A model generated the notes under the pieces. It saw only the letters and a list, made by a program, of their open reading frames with translations. It was not told the origin of the DNA and did no database searches. A program made the position numbers and the translations under genes. This document shows positions 11,401 through 28,229 of a stretch of DNA of 40,015 nucleotides, piece after piece (positions within the stretch are counted from its first letter, which is position 1; each line of letters starts with the position of its first letter). Source of the stretch: a virus (taxonomy: Duplodnaviria > Caudoviricetes); IMG/VR virus record IMGVR_UViG_3300020236_000130, positions 1 through 40,015 of that record; one strand, 5' to 3'.

Positions 11401-11410
11401 GAAGGAAGCT

Positions 11411-11728
11411 GTGAACTCTGAGTGGATTAAGGAGATATCAATCGAGGACCTGCCTCCGAGTTATCAGGAGGTGGCAAGGATCGTGGGCGTTGAAAACGCT
11501 GTAAAGCTGTCTGAGCAGCTTGGCGGACTGGGTTTTTATTTTCCCAAGATAGACAGCCTGATACAGAAGAAACGTGACGAGAAGATTCGTAAGGAATTCA
11601 GTGGATGCAACCACCAGGAGCTTGCACGGAAGTATGGACTCAGCGAAATCTGGATACGCAACATTGTGCAGAATGGGGAGAGCAAAAAACAAACTGACCT
11701 TTTTGCTGAAAAATCAAAAGGGATTTGA
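11411..11728 (+). CDS. mor: Mor/C-family transcription activator
   Basis: LSEQLGGLGFYFPK...RDEKIRKEFSGCNHQELARKYGLSEIWIRNIV. Confidence 0.92.
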   Translation: MNSEWIKEISIEDLPPSYQEVARIVGVENAVKLSEQLGGLGFYFPKIDSLIQKKRDEKIRKEFSGCNHQELARKYGLSEIWIRNIVQNGESKKQTDLFAEKSKGI

Positions 11729-12027
11729 TAGAATTTAGGAGGCATCAAATGATTAAATACAAAAATTGTAAATATTGGGGTAAAGGTGGAGATGGTTCTT
11801 TAGATGATGGCAAGCAATTTGCTATGTCTATGGAGCAATTCAATAAGGCCATAGAGCCGTATATCCGAGAGATAATAAAAATAGTAAATCTTCTTCCTCG
11901 GACAATCACCGTGACCGGAAGGAACGAGGTTGAATTTAAAACACACTGGACTCCTGAAGCAAGGGAGGCTGTCAAAATAATTAATGAAATTATTGAGTAT
12001 AATCGCACGAAATATTTTGAGACATAA
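11725..12027 (+). CDS. Hypothetical protein (start uncertain)
   Basis: ORF overlapping the mor stop; AGGAGG precedes an internal ATG at 11749. Confidence 0.55.
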   Translation: MIEFRRHQMIKYKNCKYWGKGGDGSLDDGKQFAMSMEQFNKAIEPYIREIIKIVNLLPRTITVTGRNEVEFKTHWTPEAREAVKIINEIIEYNRTKYFET

Positions 12028-12058
12028 CAGCTATTAGTCAGATCTCCCATTGAAGAAA

Positions 12059-12082
12059 GATTCCCGTCAAGCGGGAATGACA
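12059..12082. repeat. GATTCC...GGAATGACA REP-like element
   Basis: Family also at 235-258 (reverse), 12284-12307, 12323-12406, 15070-15135, 15658-15690, 22954-22977, 25249-25272 and 39588-39611. Confidence 0.85.
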
Positions 12083-12109
12083 CAACAACCCCTTCCAATA
12101 ACCTACTTC

Positions 12110-12167
12110 ACTAAACTAATTTACTAAACTACTTTAGAGGACTTCTGTGTTCTCTCCTCTCTAAGCT
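12110..12167 (+). promoter_or_regulatory. Putative activator-dependent late promoter
   Basis: ACTAAACTA direct repeat (12110, 12123), CTAAA-N4-TTTAG dyad, TAAGCT -10-like box at 12162 with no -35; between mor and the lysis genes. Confidence 0.45.
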
Positions 12168-12283
12168 TACTGCATATGCAGTCTGATTATAAACATTCCC
12201 AGTGCTTCTTACACCTCACACCTCCAAGAACGGCGGGCGGGTTGGCCTGCTCGTCCGCCGTCATACCTCTACAAGAGAAGAAA

Positions 12284-12406
12284 GATTCCGGCCAAGCCGG
12301 AATGACAGGAAAAAAAAAGAAAGATTCCGAACATTCATCCTTCGTAGTTTCATCCTTCGCAGTGCTACGGAGAACGGAACTACGGAGAACGGGAGTCGGA
12401 ATGACA
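12284..12406. repeat. Two REP-like elements, the second interrupted by doubly nested TTCATCCTTCG...CTACGGAGAACGG elements
   Basis: Removing the inserts from 12323-12406 restores GATTCCGAACAAGTCGGAATGACA, as at 25249-25272. Confidence 0.8.
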
Positions 12407-12411
12407 AAAAA

Positions 12412-12861
12412 ATGACGATGAGCACGGATAAAAACGAGGTTTTTAAAAAGCTCGAGGATATAGAACTCTTGACTCTTGTGATGTATGGAGAGGCGCGGGG
12501 TGAGGGGCTTGACGGAATGCTTGCTGTAGGCTCTGTAGTTTTAAACAGGGTAAAGCAAAAGGTCTACGGCAACGGGATAAAGGGCGTGATTTTAAAGAAG
12601 TATCAATTTTCAACGTTTAACGAGAGAGACCCTAACAGGGAATCCCTAATTCGAATTGCATTTGATTTTAAATCACATCTTGAGAGTTTTTTAACTTTGC
12701 GGGCCGGATACTGGGTTGCAAAGGGGCTGTTAGAAGGCTACTTGCACAGCAATGTAGGGGATGCAAATCACTATAACACAAAGGGGGTAGACCCTAAGTG
12801 GGATGACAATATGACGTTAATCAGGGTTATTGGAAACCATGAGTTTTTTGAGGGCAGATAG
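12412..12861 (+). CDS. Endolysin, SleB-like cell wall hydrolase (Hydrolase_2)
   Basis: LLTLVMYGEARGE...AVGSVVLNR...YQFS...IGNHEF. The upstream extension in the ORF track is repeat DNA. Confidence 0.9.
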   Translation: MTMSTDKNEVFKKLEDIELLTLVMYGEARGEGLDGMLAVGSVVLNRVKQKVYGNGIKGVILKKYQFSTFNERDPNRESLIRIAFDFKSHLESFLTLRAGYWVAKGLLEGYLHSNVGDANHYNTKGVDPKWDDNMTLIRVIGNHEFFEGR

Positions 12862-12862
12862 G

Positions 12863-13102
12863 ATGACAATACGGGAAGAAATAACGGAGATAATATATTT
12901 GGCCCTCTATTTCCAGGGCACTGATTTAAGTCAGGAAGTATTGGATTCTAAAAGGCGTATAGCTGAAAAAGCAGCTGACAAAATCCTTAATCTATCCATT
13001 CCACCCCTTTTATGTCAGTCAATACCCAAAAGCACTCACCTAATGAATGGAGAATTGTATCAGAAACTTAAACGGGAAGCGGTACAGGAGGGGGAACAAT
13101 GA
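12863..13102 (+). CDS. Hypothetical protein
   Basis: ATG right after the endolysin stop; ATGA overlap with the next gene. Confidence 0.55.
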   Translation: MTIREEITEIIYLALYFQGTDLSQEVLDSKRRIAEKAADKILNLSIPPLLCQSIPKSTHLMNGELYQKLKREAVQEGEQ

Positions 13103-13479
13103 AGAATTTTATCCTAACAAGGATTTTAAGGGCGATAGCGAAACCGTTTGATGGGTATAAAACGCAAATAAGCGGACTGATTCCCTTCTGTACTGGAATA
13201 ATTGCACTTATAGGGGTGTTATTCCCGGATATAGCCGTTCAATATCAATTGCCGGAATCAAATATGGGACTTGTGCTTGCATCCTTTACAACGGCTTTTG
13301 GCTTATGGGGGCTTGGTGGTAAATCTGAAAAGAATAAAAAAGCAGTAGAAGAGCAAACAAAAACTATGAAAGAGATGAATACATTGTTTCAAAAGAGTTC
13401 ACCAACTTTGAAAGCCACTATTCCTGCAGAACCAGAAGAGAAAGCTGGTGGATACAGGAAGCCAGGAGGGGATGACTGA
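13099..13479 (+). CDS. Holin-like two-TM membrane protein
   Basis: GYKTQISGL motif, two hydrophobic helices, charged C-terminus; lysis cassette. Confidence 0.6.
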   Translation: MKNFILTRILRAIAKPFDGYKTQISGLIPFCTGIIALIGVLFPDIAVQYQLPESNMGLVLASFTTAFGLWGLGGKSEKNKKAVEEQTKTMKEMNTLFQKSSPTLKATIPAEPEEKAGGYRKPGGDD

Positions 13480-13802
13480 TTTCCGCTATGGGGGTATGGT
13501 GAACGAGAGAAGGACGAATGAGCCTACGATCTGAAAAGAGTATCAAGTACCCGTATCGCCTAAGGCGGAAAAAATAGCCAAATGAAATGGCGACGCATAA
13601 GGGCAAAGCTCAGGGATTTTTTACTGCAGAAGCCGGGTCCGCCTCAGGCCGGGGGACATGGCAGATATGACCGGCTCTTTGTGACCGGCTCTTTGAAAAA
13701 ATGGGAGAAAGGGTCAGGCCTCATGCCCCGCAGGATCGTAATCCCGGTTTTTCAGAAACCGTTTGGAAGTTTTAAAAATTTATTTAAGAGGAGGAGGAAA
13801 AG

Positions 13803-14213
13803 ATGATGAAAAAGGATTTTAGAATTTACAGGTTAATGGTGCTGGTTCTGGCAGTTGTTCTATTTCTCGGGCTTTCTGCCTGCACCAAGTCATGGAAGAA
13901 AGACTCTGTTCTGGTTTATGGAGGGACTGCTGATACTCTGGTAATAGCCGGGGAAACTATCAAGCAGGCATACAGGGACAAGCTCATCAATATTGAGGAG
14001 TACGCAAAGATAAGGGCGGTTTACAATAAAGCCGTCAGGCTTAATCTTGTTATTGGCGATGTCCTGAAGATTGCGATTGAGGCAGAGGATGCTGTGCTGA
14101 AAAAGGCCAGTTTTGCTAAGTATCAGAAGTTGTTGAATGACTTTATCCCTCTGCTTATGGAACTCAGTCAACTGGCGGTTGAAATGGGTGTGAAAATAAA
14201 CATAGGCGGCTGA
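13803..14213 (+). CDS. Lipoprotein (possible spanin component)
   Basis: Lipobox LGLSA|C after a hydrophobic stretch; helical body; lysis cassette. Confidence 0.7.
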   Translation: MMKKDFRIYRLMVLVLAVVLFLGLSACTKSWKKDSVLVYGGTADTLVIAGETIKQAYRDKLINIEEYAKIRAVYNKAVRLNLVIGDVLKIAIEAEDAVLKKASFAKYQKLLNDFIPLLMELSQLAVEMGVKINIGG

Positions 14214-14246
14214 AGAGGCCGCAACTGGATGTAAAAATAAATAGAG

Positions 14247-14281
14247 TCCCCCGTGTTTCCTTATGGAAACAAGGAAGGGGG
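14247..14281. repeat. 35-bp double-hairpin element
   Basis: TCCCCCGTGTTTCCTTATGGAAACAAGGAAGGGGG, identical to 20778-20812. Confidence 0.9.
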
Positions 14282-14300
14282 ATAAGAGGAGGTAATTAAA

Positions 14301-14525
14301 ATGGCGTTTAAAGATATGTCACCGGAGGATATTACAAAGATGGTCGGCCTGGCTACGGCGGCCTTGACCGGACTCGGGCAGTTGAGCCTGATGTTGATAA
14401 GGGTTGTTAAGCAAAGCAAGGAAATGGCAGAGACAGATAAGGATGAGCTTATTGCCATGATTAATCAGGCACAGGCACAGTTAAAGCCTTTGCCGACTGC
14501 TGAGGAGCTGGATAAAGAGCAATGA
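14301..14525 (+). CDS. Small membrane-associated protein
   Basis: AGGAGG RBS; hydrophobic N-terminal half. Confidence 0.65.
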   Translation: MAFKDMSPEDITKMVGLATAALTGLGQLSLMLIRVVKQSKEMAETDKDELIAMINQAQAQLKPLPTAEELDKEQ

Positions 14526-14538
14526 GAGGAAGTAAATA

Positions 14539-14805
14539 ATGGAAGGGCTGGCAGTTGAAAAGTTACTGAGCCTGCTGGAGTTCGGCGGGCCGTGGGCTAT
14601 TGTGTTTTTCATCTGGTGGCAGGGCGTTAAGGAATCAAAGAGATGGGAAGCGAGGTTCCAGGCTGTAAAGCGCATGTATGAAGACAATGTGGTACTGGTT
14701 AAAGGCTATGAAAAACTCTCTAATGATCAACAGGAATTAATCATCATGAATACGCAGGCAATTACAAAGCTCACAACAATTATCAAGGAGAGGATTAAAA
14801 CATGA
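14539..14805 (+). CDS. Single-TM coiled-coil protein (BhlA/holin-like)
   Basis: FGGPWAIVFFIWW followed by a coiled coil. Confidence 0.6.
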   Translation: MEGLAVEKLLSLLEFGGPWAIVFFIWWQGVKESKRWEARFQAVKRMYEDNVVLVKGYEKLSNDQQELIIMNTQAITKLTTIIKERIKT

Positions 14806-15047
14806 GCGAGATGCTGAAACTTAAAGGCGCGCTGTCTGAAAAAAGATTAAAAAGGCGGCAATTGATCCTTGAGGCTGATACTCACATAAAGCACATCAGG
14901 GACATCTTTGCTGATTCTGTGTATATGCCTGTTACTGAGATAGATGCTGAAGGCGCTCACCTGTTGGCAGGCAAGATCCTTAACCTCCAGAAAAAAATAA
15001 AAGAGCTTGATGAGGAAATCAGGAAGATTAATAAAGAGCTTGAATAA
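14802..15047 (+). CDS. Coiled-coil hypothetical protein
   Basis: ATGA overlap; precedes the terminase small subunit. Confidence 0.65.
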   Translation: MSEMLKLKGALSEKRLKRRQLILEADTHIKHIRDIFADSVYMPVTEIDAEGAHLLAGKILNLQKKIKELDEEIRKINKELE

Positions 15048-15069
15048 AAGAATCGCTCAATTTAACAGG

Positions 15070-15135
15070 TGTCATTCCCGCTTGTCGGGAATCCTTCTGA
15101 AAACAAGGAAAGATTCTGGACAAGCCAGAATGACA
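15070..15135. repeat. REPIN-like inverted pair of REP elements
   Basis: TGTCATTCCCGCTTGTCGGGAATC...GATTCTGGACAAGCCAGAATGACA. Confidence 0.85.
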
Positions 15136-15140
15136 GACAG

Positions 15141-15644
15141 ATGAAAGGGAAGTCGTGGAAAAAGGCAAACCTTCAAACAGCATTTGACACTTACTGCGCA
15201 AGCGGCGGAAGCATGGAGGCCGCACGCAAGGCGCTGAAAGAGAAAGGGCTGGAAGTCTCAAGGCCCACGCTCTATGACTGGGAAGGTAAATATGACTGGA
15301 AGAACCGCAAGTCAGAGATTGACCTGAGACGGCAGGAGACTGAAGGGCAGACACAGGACGAAAACCTGCTTGCAGGGCTTTTATCGCAGAAAAAGAAGTT
15401 CGAGGGACACTTTGATTCACTCGGGATCGAGATAGACCCGCAGGTAACTTATGCGTATACGAATATTGTTAAGTCGATTATTGACATCAGGGCAAAGACA
15501 AATGCCAACAGGGTAGAGCTTTTCATGGAATTCTTTAAAAATTTAATTGATTATGCGCATAAAAATGACCCGCAGGCAGTGGATGTCATTGAACGCAACC
15601 TTGATGACTTTGTGCAGTACATAAGAGAGAAGTATGGGAACTGA
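15141..15644 (+). CDS. Terminase small subunit (Mu gp27-like)
   Basis: N-terminal HTH VSRPTLYDWEGKYDW; directly upstream of TerL. Confidence 0.7.
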   Translation: MKGKSWKKANLQTAFDTYCASGGSMEAARKALKEKGLEVSRPTLYDWEGKYDWKNRKSEIDLRRQETEGQTQDENLLAGLLSQKKKFEGHFDSLGIEIDPQVTYAYTNIVKSIIDIRAKTNANRVELFMEFFKNLIDYAHKNDPQAVDVIERNLDDFVQYIREKYGN

Positions 15645-15694
15645 AAAAATTAAGGAACTGGATTCCCGCTTAAGGATTGCGGGAATGACATTAT

Positions 15695-17383
15695 ATGGCA
15701 ACTAAATTCACAGACAAAAAATTCAACAGAGAGCTCGAGGCGCTGAGGTCGCTCATACAGTCCAAGGCAAAGCCTTTCCCTGATAATAAAAAAACCCAGA
15801 GGGAAAGAAAAAAGCGGGCGTCAAGAGACCTCGAGTACTTTGGCAAGACGTATTTCCCTCATTACGTGACTGCGGAATGCTCAGAGCTCCACAAATATAT
15901 CAGCACCCGGTTTTCAGGGATGGTGCTTCAGTCTGTCAAAACAGGTAACGGAGACAGGGAGGCTGATGCCGCGCCCCGGGGAAGCGCAAAATCAACATGG
16001 ATGACGCTGATTCTTCCGGTATGGGCAGCGGCTTTTAAATACAGGCTGTTCTCTCTTGTTGTCTCGGATACTGCGACACAGTCAGAGGATTTTATCTCGT
16101 TCATAAAAGCTGAACTTGAAACAAACGAAAGACTGAAGCAGGACTTTCCTGAGCTCTGCGGAGAAGGGACTGTGTGGAGGGCTGATACTATCATCACACG
16201 CAGCGGAATAAAGATACGCGGCGCAGGAAGCGGGCAGAAATTAAGAGGCATGCGGCACGGAAACAAACGGCCTGACCTGGTGATATGCGATGACCTTGAA
16301 AATGACGAGGCCGTGGAGTCGCCGGACCAGAGAAAGAAACTTGAGAAATGGTTTTTCAAGGCCCTGATGAAGATCGGGCAGAAAGATACTGTCTCTGCCG
16401 TTGGCGGGACGATCCTTCATTATGACAGTCTGCTCTTTAATCTGCTTAAGAAGCCCGGCTGGAAGGGCAGGAAATTTAAATCAGTAATCCAGTGGTCTAA
16501 ATCTCCTCTGTGGGAAAAATGGGAGACAATATTTGCGGATATCTCCGGCGGCAAGGCAGAGGCAGAGGCCGCTGCAGACAGGTTCTTCTACGGGCATGCA
16601 GCAGAGATGCTTGCAGGGACAAAGGTGCTCTGGCCGGAGGTTGAGGATTATTACTACCTCATGAAAATGAGAATCTCTGACGGGCCGGCTTATTTTGATT
16701 CTGAAAAACAGAACGAGCCGATTAACCCGGAGGACTGTTTATTCCAGGAAGACTGGTTCCAGTACTGGGAAGACGGTGAAGTGGATCTCGCCGGCATCCC
16801 TCATGCCGGAGTGGTCGACCCTTCGATGGGCAAGAAGTCAAAGAAGCGTGACCCGTCTGCAATCCTTGACGGCAGGATGAAGGAGAACATCATCTATGTC
16901 GGCATTGCAGATATTGAGAAGAGGCATCCTGACAGGATCATTGACGACATCCTGAATTATCACGAAAGGGATAAATTCGATAAGTTCGGGGTTGAGACTA
17001 TAGCGTTTCAGGAGTTTTTCAAGGACACGCTCGTGAAAGAGGCGCATAAGCGGGGGCTAACCCTTAATGTCACAGAGATCAAGCCCAACAAGGATAAATT
17101 CCTGCGCATTCAGACCTTACAGCCGTGGATTAAAAACGGCTGGATACGGTTCAAAAAAGAGCAAAAGACAATGATCGAGCAGTTGAGATACTTCCCCAAG
17201 GGTGATCACGATGACGGGCCTGATGCTCTGGAGATGCTGAAATCAATGATTGAGAAACAGATGAAAGCGGCGGCGTCAGTAAGCAGTGAGCCGGAGAAAG
17301 AGGATTACCACGCAGAGCGGTCAACAGGCTCGCGCTGGGTGGACAGATTCTTCGGACGCGGGCGGAGGAGCCTGGCGGCATGA
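15695..17383 (+). CDS. Terminase large subunit
   Basis: Walker A APRGSAKST, Walker B LVICDDLE, nuclease VVDPS and HDDGPDA. Confidence 0.95.
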   Translation: MATKFTDKKFNRELEALRSLIQSKAKPFPDNKKTQRERKKRASRDLEYFGKTYFPHYVTAECSELHKYISTRFSGMVLQSVKTGNGDREADAAPRGSAKSTWMTLILPVWAAAFKYRLFSLVVSDTATQSEDFISFIKAELETNERLKQDFPELCGEGTVWRADTIITRSGIKIRGAGSGQKLRGMRHGNKRPDLVICDDLENDEAVESPDQRKKLEKWFFKALMKIGQKDTVSAVGGTILHYDSLLFNLLKKPGWKGRKFKSVIQWSKSPLWEKWETIFADISGGKAEAEAAADRFFYGHAAEMLAGTKVLWPEVEDYYYLMKMRISDGPAYFDSEKQNEPINPEDCLFQEDWFQYWEDGEVDLAGIPHAGVVDPSMGKKSKKRDPSAILDGRMKENIIYVGIADIEKRHPDRIIDDILNYHERDKFDKFGVETIAFQEFFKDTLVKEAHKRGLTLNVTEIKPNKDKFLRIQTLQPWIKNGWIRFKKEQKTMIEQLRYFPKGDHDDGPDALEMLKSMIEKQMKAAASVSSEPEKEDYHAERSTGSRWVDRFFGRGRRSLAA

Positions 17384-17420
17384 CCCCGTACCACGTAGGG
17401 TACAGGGTAAAAAGAAGGAA

Positions 17421-18803
17421 ATGAAAATTAAAGAAAAGATCGTTAACAGGCTTTTCGGGAACGTCATTGAAGAGAAAGTCAAAGAACGCCTGGCTGCTGC
17501 CTCGATCACTGACGATGATGAGACCGGCTGGAGAAAGCTGACCGGCAATACAACCCGTGACCTTGATCCGATTAAACAGGACCGCATGATAAAGATTGCC
17601 TACTGGCTCTGGGAGAACAACCCCATGGCGCGGTGGCTCATTGAAATTTTAAAAGACTTTATCCTGGCTGAGGGACTTCCGTATGAGACAAAGAATGAAA
17701 AGGTCAAGGAATTGCTCGATGATTTCTGGTATGACCCTCTCAACCGCATGGATCTGTATGCTGAAAAGCACGTCCGGGAGCTTTATCTCTTTGGTGAGCT
17801 CTGCCTGCCGGTATTCACAGCCGAACAGACAGGGAAGCTAAGGCTTGGCTACATAGATCCGGCTGAGATAGACAAGGTCGAGACAGACCCTGAAAACGTA
17901 AAGGCGACTGTCGGGATCATTTTAAAAAGCAAAGCAGGTGAGGAAGCGAGAAAGCTTAAGACCATACTGCCGAAAGATGCGGAAACGATCCTCTCAAAAA
18001 AGGCCCGGCAGATGAGGGAGTCATATACAGACGGCGAATGCTTTTTCTTTACTGTCAATAATGTTACGAACTCGCCCCGGGGCAGGAGCGAGCTGCTTAC
18101 AGTGGCTGACTGGCTGGATGCGCTTGAGCAGTTCATGTTTGATTATGCGGATAAATGGCCGCTGCTGAACACGTTTATGTGGGACCTTATGGTTGATGGA
18201 GCGGGTGATAAGGAACTCAAGGAACAGCTGCGGGCATTCACAAAAAAGTCAGGCTCGGTCTTTGCCCACAATGAAAAAGTTACGCTTGAGGCAAAAACGC
18301 CGGACCTGAAGGCCGCAGATGCTGAACAGGGCGCAAGGCTCTTCAGGAATCACATCCTCGGCGGGCTGGGCTTCCCTGAGCACTGGTTCGGAGGCGGAGG
18401 GGATGTCAACAGGGCTACGTCTGTAGAGATGGGCACACCGACATTTAAGATGCTTAGCTCAAAGCAGAAGTATGTGAAATACATCTTTGAGACTATTTTT
18501 GAGTATGTCATAACAAAGGCGCTCGAGGCCAATTACCTGAAAGTCAGCGAAGATGAAGCCTATGACTATTCTGTAATTACACCTGAGCTGTGTACAAAAG
18601 ACATCACAAAAAATTCAACATCTGTCCAGCAGATATCCTCAGCCCTGGCCATTGCCGAGGTAAACGGATGGGTTGACAAGGAGACTGCACAGAAAGTCTT
18701 TGCGCTTGCCCTGTCTTTTTTAGGCATGGAGATAGATGTTAAGGATGTAAAAAAGAAGGTTGAAGCTAAAAAAGCAAAAGAAGGATATGAGGATTATGAC
18801 TAA
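17421..18803 (+). CDS. Portal protein
   Basis: 460 aa immediately after TerL; SPRGRSELL motif; AAGGA RBS before ATG 17421. Confidence 0.85.
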   Translation: MKIKEKIVNRLFGNVIEEKVKERLAAASITDDDETGWRKLTGNTTRDLDPIKQDRMIKIAYWLWENNPMARWLIEILKDFILAEGLPYETKNEKVKELLDDFWYDPLNRMDLYAEKHVRELYLFGELCLPVFTAEQTGKLRLGYIDPAEIDKVETDPENVKATVGIILKSKAGEEARKLKTILPKDAETILSKKARQMRESYTDGECFFFTVNNVTNSPRGRSELLTVADWLDALEQFMFDYADKWPLLNTFMWDLMVDGAGDKELKEQLRAFTKKSGSVFAHNEKVTLEAKTPDLKAADAEQGARLFRNHILGGLGFPEHWFGGGGDVNRATSVEMGTPTFKMLSSKQKYVKYIFETIFEYVITKALEANYLKVSEDEAYDYSVITPELCTKDITKNSTSVQQISSALAIAEVNGWVDKETAQKVFALALSFLGMEIDVKDVKKKVEAKKAKEGYEDYD

Positions 18804-18824
18804 AGACCGCAAAAAAGCCGCATG

Positions 18825-18935
18825 TCAAAATGCGCCACAATCGATTTTCAGGCGCAAAGACGTACAAACCATCGGGTTTTCAGCGAAGATGGAAATTGAC
18901 ATGTTTATAAACATGTTAAAACGCGGATTAGGGGC
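18825..18935. other. Candidate strong-gyrase-site-like region near the prophage centre, overlapped by a small ORF (18796-18945)
   Basis: Gap in the head module about 1.1 kb from the midpoint (20002), with periodic AT tracts (TTTATAAACATGTTAAAACG). Confidence 0.4.
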
Positions 18936-18941
18936 TCTAAT

Positions 18942-19748
18942 TTGAAAACAGTAAGCGCTGAAATACTTAAAATCCTGAAAGAAAAGGATAAGGGCATTGT
19001 TTCCGGCACTAAAGCCATCAAAAAAATGCTTGAGGAGCTCCAGCTCCAGGTGTTTGCCGAAATCAGCATGGCGGCAGTTGGTTCGTGGGATGCTTATTAT
19101 CTGCCGACACTTCAGCAAACCATTGAAGCGCAGATAAAAAACTTTACTGCAAAGGCAAAAGTAGAGGCCTCCGGGATGATGGAGGATGCGTGGGTGTACG
19201 GCCAGGCTCTTGTGGATGAGCCCCTGGCAGTTGCAGGTATATTTTTCGGGATGCCGGATCTTTCCACATCAGTGCTCGATACGCTCAAGGATTTCACACT
19301 TGGGAAATTATCGAATGTCGGGGATGCGGCATTTGACAAAATCAAAGGCGAGTTGACTATGGGGCTTTTGGGCGGCAAGACGCCGCAGGAGGTTATAACG
19401 GCGATAGGTAAAAACCTGAGTGACCCCTCAATCTTTAAATCGATTGCCTCCCGGGCAGAGGCAATTACAAAGACTGAGATGGGCAGAGTGTTCTCAGTGG
19501 CAACACAAAGGAGAATGAAGCAGGCGGCAGAATATGTTCCCGGGCTTCAAAAGCAGTGGAAACATGCAGGCCACCCTAAAAAGGCGCGGCCCACTCATCT
19601 TACTGCAGACGGGCAGAAAGTACTGGTGAATGAGAGATTTAACATCGGAGGAGAGATGATGGAACACCCGAGAGATCCGGGTGCGCCGCTCGATGAGGTA
19701 ATAAATTGTGGTTGAGACCATTTTCCATATCACCCCAATTGGGAGTGA
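18942..19748 (+). CDS. MuF/SPP1 gp7-like minor head protein; in-frame TGA (19713-19715) at the conserved second Cys (protein ends at 19715 if not read through)
   Basis: RAEAITKTEMGR, KQW, RPTH...DGQ, HPRDP...INCG(TGA)DHFPYHPNWE*. Confidence 0.85.
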
Positions 19749-19770
19749 AAAATTTTACAAGGAGGTAGAC

Positions 19771-20061
19771 ATGAGTACAAGACCGATTGACGCAAGGTAT
19801 TTGAAGGGGCTGAAATTCCACAGTGCGGAAAGCAAGACTGTGGTGGAAGACGGAAGGAAGGTCAAAAAGTTCATGCCGACTGAGAGGCCGCTTGAGCCTG
19901 AAGACGTTCTTTCCTGGAAGGACAAAGGCGATTCAGTGGTCATTGTGACCGCGGACGGACGGAAGGTCACTGTGAGTAAGTCCGGCAAGCCTGTTGTCCC
20001 CCCGGATGAAAAGACCGGCAAGGATAAAAATGGCGGCAAAGGGAAAGACGGCAAGAAATGA
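19771..20061 (+). CDS. Hypothetical head-module protein
   Basis: AAGGAGG RBS, ATG 19771; ATGA overlap with the capsid gene. Confidence 0.7.
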   Translation: MSTRPIDARYLKGLKFHSAESKTVVEDGRKVKKFMPTERPLEPEDVLSWKDKGDSVVIVTADGRKVTVSKSGKPVVPPDEKTGKDKNGGKGKDGKK

Positions 20062-22349
20062 AGCTCAGCTATGAACAGATAAGGGAGCTGATATACAGGG
20101 CTCTTCCGAATGCCTATATTGTTGAGCTCTATGATGATCACTTCATTGCCGAGGAAGGAGAGAAATATTATCAGGTCAGCTATGCAATAGTGGATGATGA
20201 GCTGACGCTGGGGGACAAAGTCGAGGTAAAGAGAAAGGTCGAATACGTAAAAATACAATCGGCAATCAGACTCTCAGGCGCGCAGGATAAAAAAGCAGAT
20301 GACTATGGGTTTAAATGGAAAGTCCGCATTGTAGAGTTCGGCACTGATAAAAACAAGACCTACTGGACAAAAGAGCCGTTGGTTGCATCTCTTTCACTCT
20401 TTGAAGGAGCAAGGGTCTTTATGCTCTCTGAGGCACAGCACCAGGATAAAAGCCATCCATTCGGCAAGCCGCCGACAGAGCTGATCGGCTGGCTCTCAGG
20501 CGTTACAGCAGATAACAACGGGATTGAGGCTGAGCTTAATATCCTGAAATCAGCAGACTCCTTAAGAGATGCCCTGGTTGATTCATGGGAGAGAGGGAAT
20601 CCTGACCTGCTCGGGCTTTCATTGGATTTAAAAGGGAATGCAAAGAAAAAAACAGTTGCAGGGCAAAAGGTGCTTTATCTTGAGGGAGTGAAAAGTGTCA
20701 CTGTTGACATTGTTTATGACCCCGCAGCGGGCGGGAAATTTTTAAGGATGGCCGCGGCCGTTAAGGCAGGCCAGAAGTCCCCCGTGTTTCCTTATGGAAA
20801 CAAGGAAGGGGGAAAGGAGGCAGAAATGTTGAAAAAACTGTTGGCTGCCTTGAAGGAGCAGAGGTCAGACCTCTATGCGACCATCGAGGCAAAAGTAAAA
20901 GACGGCACAGTCACGGAAGATGAAGTTATAGATCTCCTTGGCAGCGCCATTGTAAAAACAGAGGACCTTGATGGAAGAATCAAGGCAACGGTGCTGGAGG
21001 CAGTTAAGGCGCCGCTTGAAGAGCTTAAGGCTTCGCTTCAGAAAAAGCCCGGGGATAACGGGGACAATGGCGGGCAGCCGGACCCTAAGGAAATCCTTAA
21101 ACAAACCCGTGTCATAGCATGCGGGATTATTCTCATGGACGAGATTAAAGGCTCGGAACTGCCGGAGCTTTCTCAAAAGAAAATTGAAAAGCAGTACCGG
21201 GGCAAGGTCTTTGAAACCGAGGATCTCAGGGCTGCAATCAATGACGAGAAGGAGTACGTTGACAAGCTCACAGGCTCAGGCGGGGTGCACGGCGCAGGTG
21301 ATGTGCGGATAACCGAGACCGACCTTGAGGCGCGGGTGAAGATGCTCGATGACTTCTTCGACCACAAAGTGCACAGCCTTAAAACCTGTTATATCCATCT
21401 CACCGGGGATGACAAGGTGACAGGGGAGCTTAAGGCTGCAAGCAGGCTCAGGGCGTCTATTGATACGACCACCTTTGCACAGATCTTCGGCGATTCCGTC
21501 ACAAGGAAGATGGTCAAGGAGTACGGAATGCCCGGGCTGGATGAATGGAAAAAGATTGTTGATATAGTGCCCCTTGCTGACTTCCGCACAAACAGGCGCA
21601 CAAGAATGGGTGGCTACGGAGACCTGCCGGCTGTTGCCCAGGGCGGGGCTTACGCTGCACTCAGCTCTCCCGGTGATGAGGAAGCCACCTATGCCGCAAG
21701 CAAAAGAGGCGGCACGGAAGATCTCACCCTTGAGGCTATCAAGAACGATGATGTGGGGAGTATAAGAAGGATCCCGACGAAGATGTCAAGGGCTGCAAAG
21801 AGAACGCTCCATAAGTTTGTCTTTGATTTTCTGAAAGACAACCCGACCATCTATGACTCAGTAGCTCTCTTCCATGCTAACCACGGCAACCTCGGCTCTG
21901 CCGCACTTGATGCGGCAAACCTGACTCTAAGGCGTCAGGCAATGCTTGCGCAGACAGAGGGGGATTCGGGCGAGGTGCTCGGCATACCGCCCAAGTTCCT
22001 GATTGTGCCTGTTGAGCTGGATAAAACTGCATATGACCTGGTAGCTGCGCCGAGGAATTCCGACTTTAACCCGACTGCTGCGGACTTTACCCGTACGCTT
22101 CAGCTGGAGTTGATTGTTGTGCCTTACTGGACAGACGCTAATGACTGGTGTCTGGCCGCTAACCCTGCTGACATCCCTACAATTGAGATTGGATTCCTTG
22201 ACGGCCAGCAGGAGCCTTCTCTGTATGTTCAGGATATGCCGAATGCAGGCTCCATGTTCACAAACGATAAGCTCACATACAAAATCAAGCACACCTACGG
22301 CGGCGTGCCGATTGAATACAGAGGGCTGGACAAAAGCGTAGTAGCGTAG
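20058..22349 (+). CDS. Fused prohead protease/scaffold/major capsid protein (Mu gpI-Z-T-like)
   Basis: N-terminal protease-like region (GLSLD, VDIVYDPAAGG); C-terminal capsid region (LTLEAIKNDD, LFHANHGN, PKFLIVP, IEIGFLDGQQEP); strong internal RBS before ATG 20826. Confidence 0.88.
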   Translation: MKLSYEQIRELIYRALPNAYIVELYDDHFIAEEGEKYYQVSYAIVDDELTLGDKVEVKRKVEYVKIQSAIRLSGAQDKKADDYGFKWKVRIVEFGTDKNKTYWTKEPLVASLSLFEGARVFMLSEAQHQDKSHPFGKPPTELIGWLSGVTADNNGIEAELNILKSADSLRDALVDSWERGNPDLLGLSLDLKGNAKKKTVAGQKVLYLEGVKSVTVDIVYDPAAGGKFLRMAAAVKAGQKSPVFPYGNKEGGKEAEMLKKLLAALKEQRSDLYATIEAKVKDGTVTEDEVIDLLGSAIVKTEDLDGRIKATVLEAVKAPLEELKASLQKKPGDNGDNGGQPDPKEILKQTRVIACGIILMDEIKGSELPELSQKKIEKQYRGKVFETEDLRAAINDEKEYVDKLTGSGGVHGAGDVRITETDLEARVKMLDDFFDHKVHSLKTCYIHLTGDDKVTGELKAASRLRASIDTTTFAQIFGDSVTRKMVKEYGMPGLDEWKKIVDIVPLADFRTNRRTRMGGYGDLPAVAQGGAYAALSSPGDEEATYAASKRGGTEDLTLEAIKNDDVGSIRRIPTKMSRAAKRTLHKFVFDFLKDNPTIYDSVALFHANHGNLGSAALDAANLTLRRQAMLAQTEGDSGEVLGIPPKFLIVPVELDKTAYDLVAAPRNSDFNPTAADFTRTLQLELIVVPYWTDANDWCLAANPADIPTIEIGFLDGQQEPSLYVQDMPNAGSMFTNDKLTYKIKHTYGGVPIEYRGLDKSVVA
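20778..20812. repeat. 35-bp double-hairpin element inserted in frame in the capsid polyprotein linker
   Basis: Encodes SPVFPYGNKEGG; flanked by GAAG/AAAG. Confidence 0.9.
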
Positions 22350-22363
22350 CGAAAAGATAAACC

Positions 22364-22456
22364 GCCCCCCCCTTCTTGCTTTCGCAAGAAAGCAGCGGGG
22401 GCTACAAACTATAGAGAAGTCCCCCTACTTTGTTTTCACAAAGGAAACAGGGGGAC
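22364..22456. repeat. Two double-hairpin elements after the capsid gene
   Basis: 22364-22402 (CTTGC-TTTC-GCAAG) and 22419-22456 (CTTTGT-TTTC-ACAAAG). Confidence 0.85.
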
Positions 22457-22467
22457 AAGGAGGACAC

Positions 22468-22941
22468 ATGAGAATCAGAATCAAAAGTCTTTTGCTGGCA
22501 GTGATTATGCTCTTTATATTCATGATCATGCCAATGATAACTATGCCCGGGCCGGCGCATGCGGCTGTGACCAACTACCCTGAGGTAGTCACGGGCATAC
22601 AGGCTTTGCCGTTTCATTTCTCAAGAGTCATAACGGCAACAGCAACTCCCATAACATTCAAGTTGCCGTTTAAGGCAGAGGTCCTTGGAGTTTCAGCGCA
22701 TGCAAAGGTCCTGGATACGGTAGACGGAAATGAAACCTATACTGTTGATGTGCAGGAAGGCGGGACTACGATATTGAGTTCTGCAATTTCCCTTGCCGCA
22801 CAGGATACGGTGTATGAAGGCACATTGTCAGATACTTCACTGGCTGATGAGTCGACTATTACTGTTGTATTGACGCTTGGCGGGACGACTCCGAGTCTTA
22901 CGGATTTGACCGTGTTGTTGACCTTGAGACGAACTAATTAA
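22468..22941 (+). CDS. Beta-rich protein in the capsid-decoration position, with a Sec-type signal peptide
   Basis: MRIRIKSLLLAVIMLFIFMIMPMITMPGPAHA|A; AGGAGG RBS; Thr/Val-rich beta strands. Confidence 0.7.
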   Translation: MRIRIKSLLLAVIMLFIFMIMPMITMPGPAHAAVTNYPEVVTGIQALPFHFSRVITATATPITFKLPFKAEVLGVSAHAKVLDTVDGNETYTVDVQEGGTTILSSAISLAAQDTVYEGTLSDTSLADESTITVVLTLGGTTPSLTDLTVLLTLRRTN

Positions 22942-22981
22942 TCAAACAGGAAGGATTCCAGACAAGCCGGAATGACAACAA

Positions 22982-23060
22982 GCGAAACCCCCGCTGCTTT
23001 CTTACGAAAGCAAGATGCGGGGGTAATGCAGGCGCGGCGGCCTGCATCTGATGAGCAGCC
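22982..23060 (+). ncRNA. Type II hammerhead ribozyme with loop I/3'-tail pseudoknot; predicted cleavage after GUA (23025/23026)
   Basis: GC-GAAA (22982-87); stem III CCCCCGC/GCGGGGG closed by A-U; UA (23024-25); stem I ATGCAGGC/GCCTGCAT with loop GCGGCG; CTGATGA (23048-54); GC (23055-56) closes a 2-bp stem II; GCC (23058-60) can pair with loop GGC. Confidence 0.88.
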
Positions 23061-23079
23061 AGGAGGGAAAGGATTAGTT

Positions 23080-23358
23080 ATGGCATTTAGAAAAATAAAT
23101 ACTGATGAGTTTGAGGAGGAATCAAGACCGAAAATCAGGCGTGTCAAGCTGTCTGATTTAAAAACGAAGCTCCGAGATAATAAGCGGGAAATTTCCAACA
23201 TTAATAAACGAATAAATTATTTTAAGGGGATTTTACTGCCTTCAACTTATCCTTATGATGTAAGAAATTTTTTGAATACTTTAAGAGACGAAAGAGAAAT
23301 GTATACCGATGGTATTAAAGAATCAGAAGCTCTTATTACTAAATTGGAGAAGATGTAA
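23080..23358 (+). CDS. Coiled-coil hypothetical protein
   Basis: AAAGGA before ATG 23080; the upstream extension in the ORF track is the ribozyme/repeat. Confidence 0.65.
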   Translation: MAFRKINTDEFEEESRPKIRRVKLSDLKTKLRDNKREISNINKRINYFKGILLPSTYPYDVRNFLNTLRDEREMYTDGIKESEALITKLEKM

Positions 23359-24846
23359 GTGGCTATAGTCTGGGACAATACAAGTAAGATATTTACCGCA
23401 ACTGCTGACGTTGGCGCCGGCGATAGCTGGGCCAACGCTTTTAACGAGGACGACTTTTTTAATGTAGGAGGGCAGGCAGGCGTTACTAAAGATGTAAGTA
23501 TGCCTGCGCTGAATATTTACAAGTGGGTAGGAAGGATAGAGATTGCGGACGCAACTTATGTCTTATGGAAAAATACTGTTCATGTCATAGAAGTTACATT
23601 TGAGATGAACAATGAAAGTTTTTTTACAGGGTTAGGGCCGTTATCTTATCTCGCCTGGGGCGAAAAGATAAACGGAAACCCTCAAAATGGTATATCAATT
23701 TCCGTGGATGACACAAATTATTACATTAAATACATGGTTGATATGCCTATAGACTCTTTGAGCGTAACAAATCTTTATAGCAGTTCTTTAAAAACTGTAC
23801 TGAGAAATACTAACAAAACCACAAAGGCGGGGCTTAGTTTATTGAATCTTGAAGGAGAGATTTTAGATATTAAAATCGAGGGATTCCGTTACGGATACTA
23901 TATTTCAAGTAGTGCAGTAAATAATTTAATTATCGACCATGTGCAGGTTATTGATAGCGGGGCTTTAGCGATTGGGGCATTCCATCTCATGGCAGAGATG
24001 TCCACTCCTGTGAAAAAAATATTCATAACTAATTGTAGGAGAGGGCTTCAAGGTCATGGAGCAAAAACTCCTAACATAGACTTCTGGAATGTCGAAGGCT
24101 ATAACTCCAGCATTGAATCAGTAGGGACTAAGTATAATTATGAGATTACTGTAAGGGTGATAAATAGTGTTATTGACTGGTCGAAAATATTTATATATGA
24201 CTACCCTATGCACGCAATAGAGGAGTGCTACTCACTGAAAATTCACAGCGATGCAAATGCAAAGGTGTACTTTAAAGATGCGAGTGAATTGAATGCCCAT
24301 CAGGGGTATTCTGGCAGTAAGCTCGATGGTGATATAGACAATGCCCAGACGTTAATTAATGTTGACAGTGGAACTGACTTCGCTGTTGGCGGAGTTATAA
24401 AAATTAACATGGAACATATGCTTGTTGGCAGTATTAATGCAAATCAGCTGACTGTTACACGGGGGTACAACGCGACAGTAGCAGCAAACCACGCTGATAA
24501 TATGTGGATCTGGAAGGTGCCTGATTACGTCACTCTGGACGGTAACGGAAATTTGTCTGTCCAGCAGCCGGAGGGAGTTAAGGATTATCTGGTTTTTCCA
24601 AAAAGGCGGTGGGATAAAATCGCTTTAGACCTTACGACTTTTAATAATCATAAGATAAAAATTGAAAAGGCCGGGATCCAGACGTATGAAGATACGATCA
24701 CGGAATATCCGGCTGAGGGAATCGTGTTGGAGATTGCTCTGCAGACAAGGCTGTATGCGGCTACTGCGCTGAAGACGACTATCCCGCAACAGGGTTTAAA
24801 GACAACTGTAGCAGGCAGGGCATTGCAATATAGGATGGGGACATAA
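23359..24846 (+). CDS. Putative virion appendage protein with beta-helix-like region
   Basis: Ile/Asn-rich short strand repeats; LTVTRGYNATVAANH module typical of phage fibre/tail proteins; AT-rich. Confidence 0.55.
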   Translation: MAIVWDNTSKIFTATADVGAGDSWANAFNEDDFFNVGGQAGVTKDVSMPALNIYKWVGRIEIADATYVLWKNTVHVIEVTFEMNNESFFTGLGPLSYLAWGEKINGNPQNGISISVDDTNYYIKYMVDMPIDSLSVTNLYSSSLKTVLRNTNKTTKAGLSLLNLEGEILDIKIEGFRYGYYISSSAVNNLIIDHVQVIDSGALAIGAFHLMAEMSTPVKKIFITNCRRGLQGHGAKTPNIDFWNVEGYNSSIESVGTKYNYEITVRVINSVIDWSKIFIYDYPMHAIEECYSLKIHSDANAKVYFKDASELNAHQGYSGSKLDGDIDNAQTLINVDSGTDFAVGGVIKINMEHMLVGSINANQLTVTRGYNATVAANHADNMWIWKVPDYVTLDGNGNLSVQQPEGVKDYLVFPKRRWDKIALDLTTFNNHKIKIEKAGIQTYEDTITEYPAEGIVLEIALQTRLYAATALKTTIPQQGLKTTVAGRALQYRMGT

Positions 24847-24850
24847 GCGC

Positions 24851-25219
24851 ATGAACGGGGTTATGAAATTTGAAACCATAAAGGGAGATACTCTCCCGGC
24901 CCTGCAGGTAAACGTTGGAGAGAGCAATGACGGGAAAAAGGAAAACGGCTTTGTTACTGATCCGACAGGAGCCATAGTCAAATTCTCAATGTGGAAGATA
25001 GAGGATGAGACCATAAAGGTTAATGCTGCAGCCGGCAGTGTCCAGAACGTAGCGCTAAACAGTGACGGGACATATTATGCGGAGCTGGTCTATGCCTGGG
25101 TTGCGGCAGATGTTGATACAAAAGGACAATACCCGGGTAGGTTTACGCTGACTATCGGGGCAGATACAATCTCCATCCCCAAGAAAAAGGGAGAGTTGTT
25201 AGTAATCATAGACGATTGA
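24851..25219 (+). CDS. BppU N-terminal-like (Ig-like adaptor) protein
   Basis: IKGDTLPALQV...TGAIVKFSM...LVYAWVAADVDTKGQY pattern. Confidence 0.6.
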   Translation: MNGVMKFETIKGDTLPALQVNVGESNDGKKENGFVTDPTGAIVKFSMWKIEDETIKVNAAAGSVQNVALNSDGTYYAELVYAWVAADVDTKGQYPGRFTLTIGADTISIPKKKGELLVIIDD

Positions 25220-25277
25220 ATCGGGAGAATGACAGAAAAAGAAAGAATGATTCCGAACAAGTCGGAATGACAGAAAA

Positions 25278-25964
25278 ATGAGTGTATTAGCTGACATAAG
25301 ACAAAAAGTTATTTCCATTGTAAGGGACGACGCAACGAAGCTCGATAACCCTCATGATTACGACCGCATCATCAGCGCTGCAGTCAACAGATATTCCAAA
25401 CACCGCCCTGGTACCGCAGTTGCAGACATCACAGGGGACGGCGGTAATGATTATGCCCTGCCCTCTGCCTGGGTAGATGAATTCTCAGCGATTAAAAGTA
25501 TTGAATTCCCAATCGGAGACGTGCCGGCAACATTGCTGGATGATGATGCATACACAATCTATCAGGATACCTCGGCCAGGAAAATACGGCTTATCCATGA
25601 TTCACCATCAGCCTCTGAGTCTTTCAGGGTGACGTTTTCAATTCCAAGGACAGAAACAACGGTCCCGGCTAACGAAGTGGATGCCGTGTGCAGCCTTGCG
25701 GCCTCGTTCTGTCTGGAAGAGCTTGCAAATGTTTATGCTCAGACATCAGACGCTACTATTGGCGCAGACTCTGTGAACTATAGAACCAAATCCCAGGAAT
25801 TTGCATCAAGGGCAAAGTCGCTGCGGAATCTCTACAAGAGTCACCTGGGGATAAAAGCAGATGATACTGTGATGCCGGCAAGCGCAGCAACAGATCTGGA
25901 TGTGGGATATCCGGGCGGCAGTGACAGGCTTACTCATCCAAGGAAACTGAGGGAAAAGCGGTAA
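25278..25964 (+). CDS. Head-tail connector/adaptor protein
   Basis: Synteny; helical N- and C-termini (AVNRYS, LAASFCLEELA). Confidence 0.6.
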   Translation: MSVLADIRQKVISIVRDDATKLDNPHDYDRIISAAVNRYSKHRPGTAVADITGDGGNDYALPSAWVDEFSAIKSIEFPIGDVPATLLDDDAYTIYQDTSARKIRLIHDSPSASESFRVTFSIPRTETTVPANEVDAVCSLAASFCLEELANVYAQTSDATIGADSVNYRTKSQEFASRAKSLRNLYKSHLGIKADDTVMPASAATDLDVGYPGGSDRLTHPRKLREKR

Positions 25965-26476
25965 TGGAATTAAAAGTCTCAATGAAAAAGAAGGGCCCAA
26001 TTTTTGAGGGTAAAACCGCAAAGATAGTTAACAAAGACCTTACAGCTGCAATGTATGAGGCAACTCAGCTGCTTGAGCGGGAGGTTAAAAAGAGGACTCC
26101 TGCCGGTGTTATGGGCGCCCAGGCAGGCCTGCGCTCAGGGATACACGGCGAGGTCACAGGCAAGGGCACGCCCAGGGTAAAGGGCATTGTTGCCGCGCAT
26201 GCCTCACATAAATATGCAGAGGTTATTGAAAAAGGGCGCAGGGCAAATAAGGCCTGGCCTCCGGAGGGAGTACTGCTGAGGTGGATACAGGTGAAGTTCG
26301 GAGAGAGTGCGGAGACAGCGCAGAGACTTGAATTTGTTATCCGAAGGAAAATCGGGAGGAAAGGCTTCCCCGGGGTGCATATGTTTGAGAACGCTCTTAA
26401 TGAAAACTGGACAAAGATTAAGAAAATATTTGACAAGGCCGGCTATAAGATAGCGAGGGATTTAGGTGGCAAATAG
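25964..26476 (+). CDS. HK97 gp10-like neck/tail-completion protein
   Basis: VKKRTP...LRSGI...YAEVIEKG...IGRKG...HMFENA. Confidence 0.7.
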   Translation: MELKVSMKKKGPIFEGKTAKIVNKDLTAAMYEATQLLEREVKKRTPAGVMGAQAGLRSGIHGEVTGKGTPRVKGIVAAHASHKYAEVIEKGRRANKAWPPEGVLLRWIQVKFGESAETAQRLEFVIRRKIGRKGFPGVHMFENALNENWTKIKKIFDKAGYKIARDLGGK

Positions 26477-26930
26477 ATATTTATCGATCCTGGCAGATGT
26501 TAAAACCAACCTGGACTCTGTCATCGACATAGGGAAGACCTACGATTACGAGAGGTGGTTAAAAGACTGGACTAAATTTATCAACCTTTTTAAGTCAGAG
26601 AACCACGGGCAGATCCGCGGCTGGGAGATTACAAGGGCCGCGGCGCCCGAGCATCAGGCAGGCGCATTTTTCAGGCATCATAAATTTGTCATCCGGGGAT
26701 ATATGGCAATCAAGGACTCAGATGCAACTGACAAAACATTTCAGGAGCTGGTTGAGGAAGTCTGTGCGAAATTCAGGACAGCCGCTGACGGTACTGCATG
26801 GTTTTATGGTGATGGAGACCAGAGCGGCGATGCGCCGGCCCAGGTTGAAACAATTGAAGCAAGGACTTTCGGCGGAGTGCTGTGTCACTACGCTGAAATA
26901 AAGTTAACGGTCACAGAACGAATAATTTAA
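26466..26930 (+). CDS. Tail terminator-like protein
   Basis: Size and position before the tail tube; C-terminal strand AEIKLTV. Confidence 0.6.
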   Translation: MANRYLSILADVKTNLDSVIDIGKTYDYERWLKDWTKFINLFKSENHGQIRGWEITRAAAPEHQAGAFFRHHKFVIRGYMAIKDSDATDKTFQELVEEVCAKFRTAADGTAWFYGDGDQSGDAPAQVETIEARTFGGVLCHYAEIKLTVTERII

Positions 26931-26932
26931 CA

Positions 26933-27046
26933 GTCCCCCTACTTTCTGACTGGCCCCTGCGTCTCACGACGCAAGACGTGGCAGCGGGCGAAAGTAAGAA
27001 GGGGGACAAGGTACCCCTGCTTTCTTGCGAAAGCAAAAAGGGGTAC
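26933..27046. repeat. Nested composite element (26933-27007) plus a second double-hairpin element (27011-27046)
   Basis: Core TGGCCCCTGCGTCTCACGACGCAAGACGTGGCAGCGGGCGAAAG shared with 11101-11144. Confidence 0.85.
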
Positions 27047-27058
27047 AAGGAGGTAACA

Positions 27059-27208
27059 ATGTTAAAGAGACAGGCAGGTTCCTTTATCAAGGAAAAAGGA
27101 GGAGACATAAAGCCAAACCTTAAGGACCCGGCAATGAGAGAGAGAGAGAACCTCAGGAAAAAGGCCGAGCCCAAGAAAAAGGAGGTAAGTACCAATGTTA
27201 AGAAATAG
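27059..27208 (+). CDS. Small basic hypothetical protein
   Basis: AAGGAGG RBS before ATG 27059; overlaps the tail tube start. Confidence 0.55.
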   Translation: MLKRQAGSFIKEKGGDIKPNLKDPAMRERENLRKKAEPKKKEVSTNVKK

Positions 27209-28136
27209 AGCAGTAATCCTGGCAAATGTTGAAGTAACATACGGCGTTGATATCGTGCCAACGCCCGCGGCAAATGCAATACTCTGCGAGCTTCCTGAGT
27301 TCTCGGTAATCGGCAGCAGGCTTGAAAGACCTAATATTCAGTCCTACATGGGCAAATTATCGCCGCTGAATATCGGGGAAGGGCTGAAAATCAAGTTTGT
27401 CACCGAGCTAAAGGGGCATGGCTCTGTTGTGGACACGCCTCCGGAGATCGGAGTGCTCTTCAGGGGCTGTAATTTCACAGAGACCATTACACCGACTACC
27501 GGGCCTGTTGATTACGATCCGAACTCGGCGGCCGGCATACCCGACAGCTCTGAGAGCCTGTCTATCTACTTCTACCAGGATGGGATTCTCCATAAGCTGT
27601 TAGGCTCCAGAGGGACTTTCTCGGTAGCCCTTAAGGCAGGCGAATACGGCAAGATCACATGGGAATTCACCGGGATATACGCAGGGCCGGCTGACGATAC
27701 GCTTCCCACCGGGACGTTCAACACTACACTCCCGCCGCGTTTTGTATCCGCATCCTTTGCAATTGATTCATATGCGGCTGTCATTGAAAGCCTGAATATT
27801 GATATTGCCAACAGGATAGTCAAGAGGCCGAGCGCCAATGCGGCAACAGGCATCCTCGAGTGGCTGATCTCTGACAGAGAGCCAAAGGGAGACTGCGACC
27901 CTGAGGTAGTAGCCCTTGCGACCAAGGACTTCTGGGACATGTGGAATCAGTCGTCCCAGGTAGCGCTTGCTGCAACTGTTGGAGCAGTCTCAATGAACAG
28001 GTGCGTAATCACAGGGCCAAAGATTGTCCTTGATGTGCCGACATACGGGGATAGAGAGAATTTCCTCACACACGGCCTGCCGATGAGCCTGCACCCGAGT
28101 TCCGGCAATGACGAGATTAAATTCAGCTTCACGTAA
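27195..28136 (+). CDS. Major tail tube protein
   Basis: 313 aa, beta-rich, VEVTYG N-terminal motif, GNDEIKFSF end; upstream of the chaperones and tape measure. Confidence 0.85.
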   Translation: MLRNRAVILANVEVTYGVDIVPTPAANAILCELPEFSVIGSRLERPNIQSYMGKLSPLNIGEGLKIKFVTELKGHGSVVDTPPEIGVLFRGCNFTETITPTTGPVDYDPNSAAGIPDSSESLSIYFYQDGILHKLLGSRGTFSVALKAGEYGKITWEFTGIYAGPADDTLPTGTFNTTLPPRFVSASFAIDSYAAVIESLNIDIANRIVKRPSANAATGILEWLISDREPKGDCDPEVVALATKDFWDMWNQSSQVALAATVGAVSMNRCVITGPKIVLDVPTYGDRENFLTHGLPMSLHPSSGNDEIKFSFT

Positions 28137-28152
28137 AAAACAGTTTTGAAAG

Positions 28153-28229
28153 GTCCCCCTTCTTTCCCCCTTCCTTGTTTCCACAAGGAAACACGGGGGA
28201 CTTTGTTTTCACAAAGAAAACAGGGGGAC
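28153..28229. repeat. Nested double-hairpin composite with CTTT duplication
   Basis: Reverse-complement equivalent of host-flank composite 266-342. Confidence 0.9.

Follow-up and report, generated by a model that had tools for sequence, protein, structure and literature searches.

An in-frame TGA in place of a conserved cysteine of the MuF minor head protein: a probable selenocysteine codon in Mu-like prophages

Introduction

A TGA that stands where the relatives of a phage head protein carry a conserved cysteine may mark the end of a truncated gene or a site of selenocysteine (Sec) insertion. This question is raised by the minor head gene of a prophage in the window (the whole stretch of viral DNA that was analysed, 40,015 nucleotides, IMG/VR record IMGVR_UViG_3300020236_000130), for which the initial annotation proposed a CxU motif decoded by the Sec machinery of the host. 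To our knowledge, the prokaryotic selenoproteins on record are cellular and mostly redox enzymes. Sec in a virion head protein, if true, would extend recoding to phage structure and would hint that the MuF domain, which is widespread but little understood, harbours unrecognised thiol chemistry in the form of a metal or redox site; it would also mean that about a third of the database proteins of the family are annotated 11 residues short.

The prophage and its MuF gene

An integrated Mu-like transposable prophage occupies positions 426..39578 (plus strand), and is recognised by its transposase and ATPase, its TG...CA ends (TGTAG...CTACA) and the target duplication TGCAGG at 420-425 and 39579-39584; phage Mu itself duplicates 5 bp, as against the 6 bp here. 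The gene set comprises transposase, AAA ATPase, Gam, GemA, terminase, portal, capsid, tail tube and tape measure, and the core neighbour genes align with their relatives over most of their length, which shows that the prophage has suffered no gross decay. No tRNA gene was found in the window. Several other features were observed in passing: tandem units of ~19 nt near the right prophage end (about 39335-39480), possibly transposase-binding sites or end repeats; a thymidylate-synthase-like gene in the early region (9058-9789; PF00303, E 2e-11) that could encode a DNA-modification enzyme; a tail-region protein with a CBM96/disaggregatase-repeat domain (35104-36708), a candidate receptor-binding protein; and a 763-aa protease/scaffold-capsid fusion (20058-22349; PF25209 and Mu gpT), preceded at 19771-20061 by a conserved 96-aa gene of no known family with matches in 102 loci including duplicates.

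The gene in question, 18942..19748 on the plus strand, has 268 codons when its internal TGA is read through and yields 257 aa when it is not. It scores 30.7 bits against PF04233 (cut-off 29.6) and matches a head-morphogenesis PHROG (E 2e-27), its match to TIGR01641 falls below the cut-off, and its predicted fold resembles viral minor capsid proteins (TM 0.82, E 4e-11). The portal gene lies on one side and the protease-capsid gene on the other, and the PF04233 domain together with this place in the head module identifies a MuF/SPP1 gp7 minor head protein, in the short form with no toxin extension. All invariant MuF residues are present. The frame reads ...PLDEVINCG-TGA(19713-19715)-DHFPYHPNWE-TGA(19746-19748), exactly as first described; the open reading frame up to the first TGA spans 18942-19715, and the motif C-G-TGA (19707..19715, plus strand) corresponds to CxC with TGA at the second cysteine, codon 258. 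Both motif cysteines are invariant across 69 Cys-form relatives, so that frame and alignment together bear out the replacement of a conserved cysteine. A 10-residue tail (19716..19748, plus strand) runs from this TGA to the true stop, and the AGGAGG of the next gene begins 11 nt past the second TGA, at 19760, close to the distance of about 10 nt given earlier, with its ATG at 19771.

Positions 18800-20600 are identical, with zero differences, to a Logan contig of sequencing run X1, and an error of one assembler is therefore unlikely as the origin of the TGA, this run being probably the source sample and thus not independent of the window record. TGA is the commonest stop among the 43 selected plus-strand open reading frames of the window and ends 18 of them, including MuF itself at its final stop; the phage therefore uses the standard code, TGA being an ordinary stop elsewhere as the initial annotation had cautioned, and a genome-wide reassignment of TGA (code 4/25) was rejected on this count. 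No similar case was seen on inspection by eye among the other TGA-ended frames of this set.

The codon at the second cysteine and the tail beyond it

The Cys-versus-TGA count in relatives, which the initial annotation had called for, was made on 184 loci and the window; 181 of these 185 reach the motif (four stop short of the C-terminus), and 136 distinct loci remain after duplicates are merged. The codon is TGC in 78 and TGT in 38, that is, Cys in 116, and TGA in 20, the window included; TAA, TAG and TGG (Trp) occur in 0/136. Among 119 database relatives, which as proteins do not reveal the codon at their end, 41 end right before the second cysteine, 77 carry CxC and the tail, and one is cut earlier. 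The suspicion that the TGA is a private nonsense mutation is not borne out by these figures, the stop position being shared by 20/136 loci and 41/119 database proteins. A pattern scan allowing any TRR codon returned TGA in 7/7 matches, six of them MuF, and a further scan of this kind TGA in 6/6, four of them MuF; all the MuF matches repeat alleles already counted, and the non-MuF matches L201, L252 and L254 were dropped. A single-sequence scan of viral contigs for relatives found nothing, whereas alignment scans did find them, and annotated phage records held only distant relatives (at most 35% identity among the 30 matches listed). A search with two exact patterns aimed at further MuF lineages, too narrow to weigh either way, gave 0 matches, and a MuF profile run over 401 genomes of the phylum of the TGA-bearing bin G002 found G002 only.

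On a tree of 214 rows, built without the codon and the tail (13 of the 136 loci were too short and were left out) and with protein-only rows ending at the column scored as TGA, the Cys/TGA state requires 32 changes, at least 17 of them forced by well-supported branches, against 45 for shuffles. The sister of the window is a TGA locus, L002 (support 93), and its nearest relatives are a mixture of Cys and TGA forms.

Conservation of the peptide after the TGA, which had been set as a check, was found throughout: no further stop interrupts the frame for 10-25 codons in 20/20 carriers, all of which have the conserved tail, and its Pro (20/20) and Trp (20/20) are kept as in the Cys forms. Differences in the tail fall mostly at third positions (696 vs 505 vs 214), a signature of conserved coding sequence. 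In the AlphaFold model of a Cys relative, P0003, the tail forms a beta-strand at 258-262 (pLDDT about 90) and its presence lengthens strand 202-206, and we infer that these two strands pair with each other; in the truncated model of the window protein, pLDDT falls to 77 at the end. Residues invariant upstream of the motif are K203, W205, H207, R215, H218, F232 and P242 in P0003 numbering. The tail of the window carries a private V/I-to-F change and an Asn at position 8 that is found in 16/106 Cys genes and in no other TGA carrier, and its C-terminal domain departs from the family at 5/32 conserved columns, as many as are seen in 10% of relatives.

The hairpin downstream of the TGA

A hairpin at the position of a bacterial SECIS element, TCACCCC-AATT-GGG-A-GTGA (19730..19748, plus strand), has seven pairs, a bulged A at 19744 and the loop AATT at 19737-19740, and overlaps the true stop codon of MuF. 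It starts 14 nt past the TGA and its 4-nt loop 21 nt past it, so that the SECIS-like spacing noticed at the outset holds, as does the absence of the canonical G from the apical loop, no G hairpin having been found; the proposed TTTT/AAAA extension of the stem is absent from the predicted fold (-8.2 to -9.0 kcal/mol). The published model of bacterial SECIS elements has a loop of 3-9 nt, often with G followed by G or U, at a spacing of 16-37 nt, and the same source describes some elements that lie outside it (PMC13188914, as far as its accessible text goes). The geometry of the carriers fits this model, with the loop starting 21-22 nt downstream and, in 19/20, G[G|U] in it.

Taken alone, the hairpin of the window does not stand out from shuffled sequences (z -1.2 to -1.5); its significance emerges only in comparison with Cys-bearing relatives, which share the same His-Pro-x-Trp codon constraint and of which 114 served as the control (two Cys loci were too short to fold). 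First, G at +23 is present in 19/20 TGA carriers and 38/114 Cys genes, and a G[G/T] loop in 19/20 and 21/114. Second, the median hairpin free energy is -10.6 in carriers and -5.9 in Cys genes. Third, the full stem of 7/7 pairs occurs in 14/20 carriers and 2/114 Cys genes, the stem score being the best of four registers picked after the carriers had been seen. Looser conditions (loop 3-9 nt, stem of at least 4 bp, spacing 16-37 nt, MFE at most -7.5) are satisfied by the window and by 18/20 carriers against 56/114 Cys genes, and the full model including the G by 17/20 against 44/114. Because TGA and Cys rows are related, Fisher p-values are overstated, and eight independent pairs were used instead: the stem goes with TGA in 6.0 and against it in 0.1 (median p 0.031), and G at +23 goes with TGA in 5.0 against 0 (median p 0.0625). 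Covariation on one fixed register is not above shuffles (71/500); the carriers use different registers. Seven Cys genes (L025, L029, L035, L036, L037, L085 and L095) retain a stem of 6-7 pairs with a G[G/T] loop, and are likely to be recent Sec-to-Cys reversions or pre-adapted alleles.

These data bear on the reading that every carrier simply terminates at the TGA, a truncation repeatedly tolerated, with the hairpin a by-product of the His-Pro-x-Trp codons or a terminator-like element. TGA is indeed one step from TGC or TGT, the protein sequence in part dictates the CC/GG pairing, and assembly of SPP1 does not require gp7 (PMC6316719). A tail that is open and conserved in every carrier, over lineages only 38-65% identical to the window protein, is hard to reconcile with such truncation, as are the lack of TAA and TAG at the column and the general lack of stem and G[G/T] loop in Cys genes under the same codon constraints, and we hold this reading to be highly unlikely.

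Host lineage and Sec machinery

To the right of the prophage lies a fragment of host coaE (dephospho-CoA kinase; 39768..40013, plus strand), whose 84% likeness to a Thermodesulfovibrionia CoaE (P0124) points to this class as the host lineage. The nearest of 390 genomes of the class, G355, whose CoaE has no more than this 84% likeness and which serves here as a proxy for the actual host, has selA, selB, a TGA-bearing selD and selC, the tRNA-Sec(UCA) gene. Among the five nearest genomes of the class, selA is present in four, selB in five, selD in four and selC in four. The 390 genomes hold two MuF copies, both with TGA and both in genomes with selA. The suggested check of hosts for selA, selB, selC and selD was answered in part. 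The complete set is present in G355 and in G002, G003 and G007, three of the five bins whose MuF has TGA; G001, with a 2.9-kb contig, gives only a partial SelB match, and G019, an archaeal bin with a 4.7-kb contig that is possibly misbinned, has none of the four genes. Most bins with the Cys form are likewise Sec-positive (selA 15/18, selB 16/18), and host Sec status therefore permits TGA but does not predict it.

Two loci met in this survey deserve mention. In the Aminicenantales bin G001, the C-terminal half of SelB (L185; C113, 18905-19798) lies apart from the N-terminal part, perhaps as a frameshifted selB. In G349, ARAGORN assigns Cys(GCA) to a tRNA (L216, 73-167; C32) whose score exceeds the tRNA-Sec cut-off (56.7 bits). 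A second selD with TGA lies 1.3 kb away, and this tRNA may be of the Sec type despite its Cys anticodon.

A SECIS-dependent Cys-tRNA with a UCA anticodon occurs in some anaerobes. The UGA might accordingly be read as Cys or another residue, the hairpin would serve either route, and the sequence by itself cannot name the residue inserted. Insertion of a residue other than Sec is nevertheless improbable in view of the ordinary tRNA-Sec(UCA), selA and selD of host-class genomes, of the absence of Trp from the column in all relatives and of the lack of a tRNA gene in the window.

The missing loop G of the window

The window is the only one of the 20 TGA carriers that lacks the loop G: it has A at 19738 (+23), where 19/19 others have G, and the MuF copy of G322 also has the G. 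Its stem is whole (7/7), with a bulge shared with L106 and L032 and two pairs changed on both sides. A full stem without the G occurs in 1/114 Cys genes, which makes descent of the window's TGA from an ancestor with TGA and SECIS far likelier than a fresh nonsense mutation.

The contrary reading, in which the TGA is private to the window, arose in a Cys-type gene and resembles the Sec alleles of the family by coincidence, can draw on the Asn at tail position 8, a residue common in Cys genes and absent from other carriers, and on the interleaving of Cys and TGA forms near the window. Besides the rarity of such a stem in Cys genes, it has to contend with the TGA of the sister row and with a stop in 15-34% of the family, which would be far above the chance of a fresh hit at one codon, and we give it very little credence.

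Within the preferred descent from a Sec allele, it may be asked how well the window's own copy is decoded. Since it alone among carriers lacks the G, decoding may be weak or lost. A hairpin with a G loop can form at every TGA site examined in selD and fdh genes of the host class (n=11) and at two such sites from other phyla, in a lax test that 44/114 Cys controls pass in similar form and L216 passes by its second-best fold only (the wrong-strand rows L230 and L233 were dropped). A fully functional copy, in which the host SelB accepts the AAUU loop and makes Sec-MuF efficiently, is conceivable given the intact stem, the intact prophage ends, target duplication and core genes, the retention of every invariant MuF residue and the SECIS elements that PMC13188914 places outside its model. 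With G in every other carrier and in G322, G loops at the selD and fdh sites of the class and a private change in the tail, we consider efficient decoding of this copy possible but rather doubtful. The original proposal of a CxU virion protein thus fares well for the family, where codon, tail and hairpin concur and the hosts surveyed mostly have Sec machinery, and less well for the window's own copy.

Proposed decoding and its consequences

The TGA in the MuF family of the window is most likely a Sec codon and the protein a phage selenoprotein. The observations are jointly best explained, in our judgement with high probability, by an inherited Sec codon served by host SelB and an in-frame SECIS, with the G-less hairpin of the window predicted to recruit SelB poorly. 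On the bacterial model, the SelB-Sec-tRNA complex of the host would bind the hairpin 15-33 nt past the UGA during late expression; Sec would be inserted at residue 258, followed by ten residues predicted to complete a beta-strand of the C-terminal domain. SPP1 gp7 attaches to the portal, is taken into the head in small numbers and is dispensable (PMC6316719). By analogy, MuF would be a portal-bound head protein of few copies, in which the CxU pair and the invariant upstream His, Arg and Trp may make up a metal-binding or redox site. Lineages appear to flip repeatedly between Cys and TGA with SECIS, mostly in Sec-positive anaerobic hosts; the codon is observed and Sec is its probable meaning. 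In the window, the G-to-A change would most simply be one recent event in a resident prophage and would leave MuF mostly truncated, which should be tolerated since assembly does not depend on gp7-type proteins, although only about 25% of SPP1 virions without gp7 are infectious (PMC6316719). On this view the phage could bear partial readthrough and switching between Cys and Sec as well as loss of the element once it is resident as a prophage.

With more reserve, we favour the wider proposal that the MuF proteins of Mu-like phages infecting anaerobes are a genuine selenoprotein family with many Cys/Sec switches, and the first selenium-containing bacteriophage virion protein; recoding would then tie the yield of fully infectious particles to the selenium status of the host, and the window would hold either a decayed element or a SECIS that Thermodesulfovibrionia SelB reads without the G. 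Direct tests of SECIS gain and loss can draw on the many sister pairs of Cys and TGA forms and on this G-less allele from nature. For experiments, a canonical G-loop member (e.g. L003 in G003) would be preferable, and the window would serve as a naturally occurring allele that has lost the G.

Comparison with known systems

A phage selenoprotein was not found in a literature search for which subscription papers were mostly outside scope and supplementary lists could hold MuF entries. The table of 119 selenoprotein families in PMC13188914 (2026) has neither MuF/PF04233 nor any phage family, and the word 'phage' occurs 0 times in the accessible text; according to the available part of PMC9402790, selenoprotein families contain few or no viral sequences. 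As a MuF/SPP1 gp7 protein (PF04233, TIGR01641), the gene is ordinary in its Pfam match over the cut-off, its place after the portal and its predicted fold, and is set apart by TGA at the second motif cysteine in about 15% of loci. Searches by sequence or fold, in which the C-terminal domain was queried only together with the rest of the protein, retrieved generic helical bundles and no solved MuF structure.

Selenoproteins of poxviruses, the glutathione peroxidases of molluscum contagiosum virus and fowlpox virus, are likewise virus genes that depend on the Sec machinery of the host, but they are described as captured host enzymes of eukaryotic viruses (PMC8310308, in the part available), whereas MuF is a native phage head protein. 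Basilisk-like phages offer another link between phage and Sec through a tRNA-Sec gene; what is reported there, as far as the accessible text of PMC6145125 goes, is a predicted tRNA and not a selenoprotein, whereas the window has no tRNA. Bacterial selenoprotein genes differ from the present case, known from sequence alone, in that here the gene is a phage structural one, the hairpin lies over the true stop and the window lacks the loop G. They share with it the UGA at a Cys-homologous column, Cys-bearing homologues, a conserved open frame after the UGA, a hairpin loop 21-22 nt downstream with G[G/U] in 19/20 carriers, and a CxU motif of a type already listed for other families in the available part of PMC13188914.
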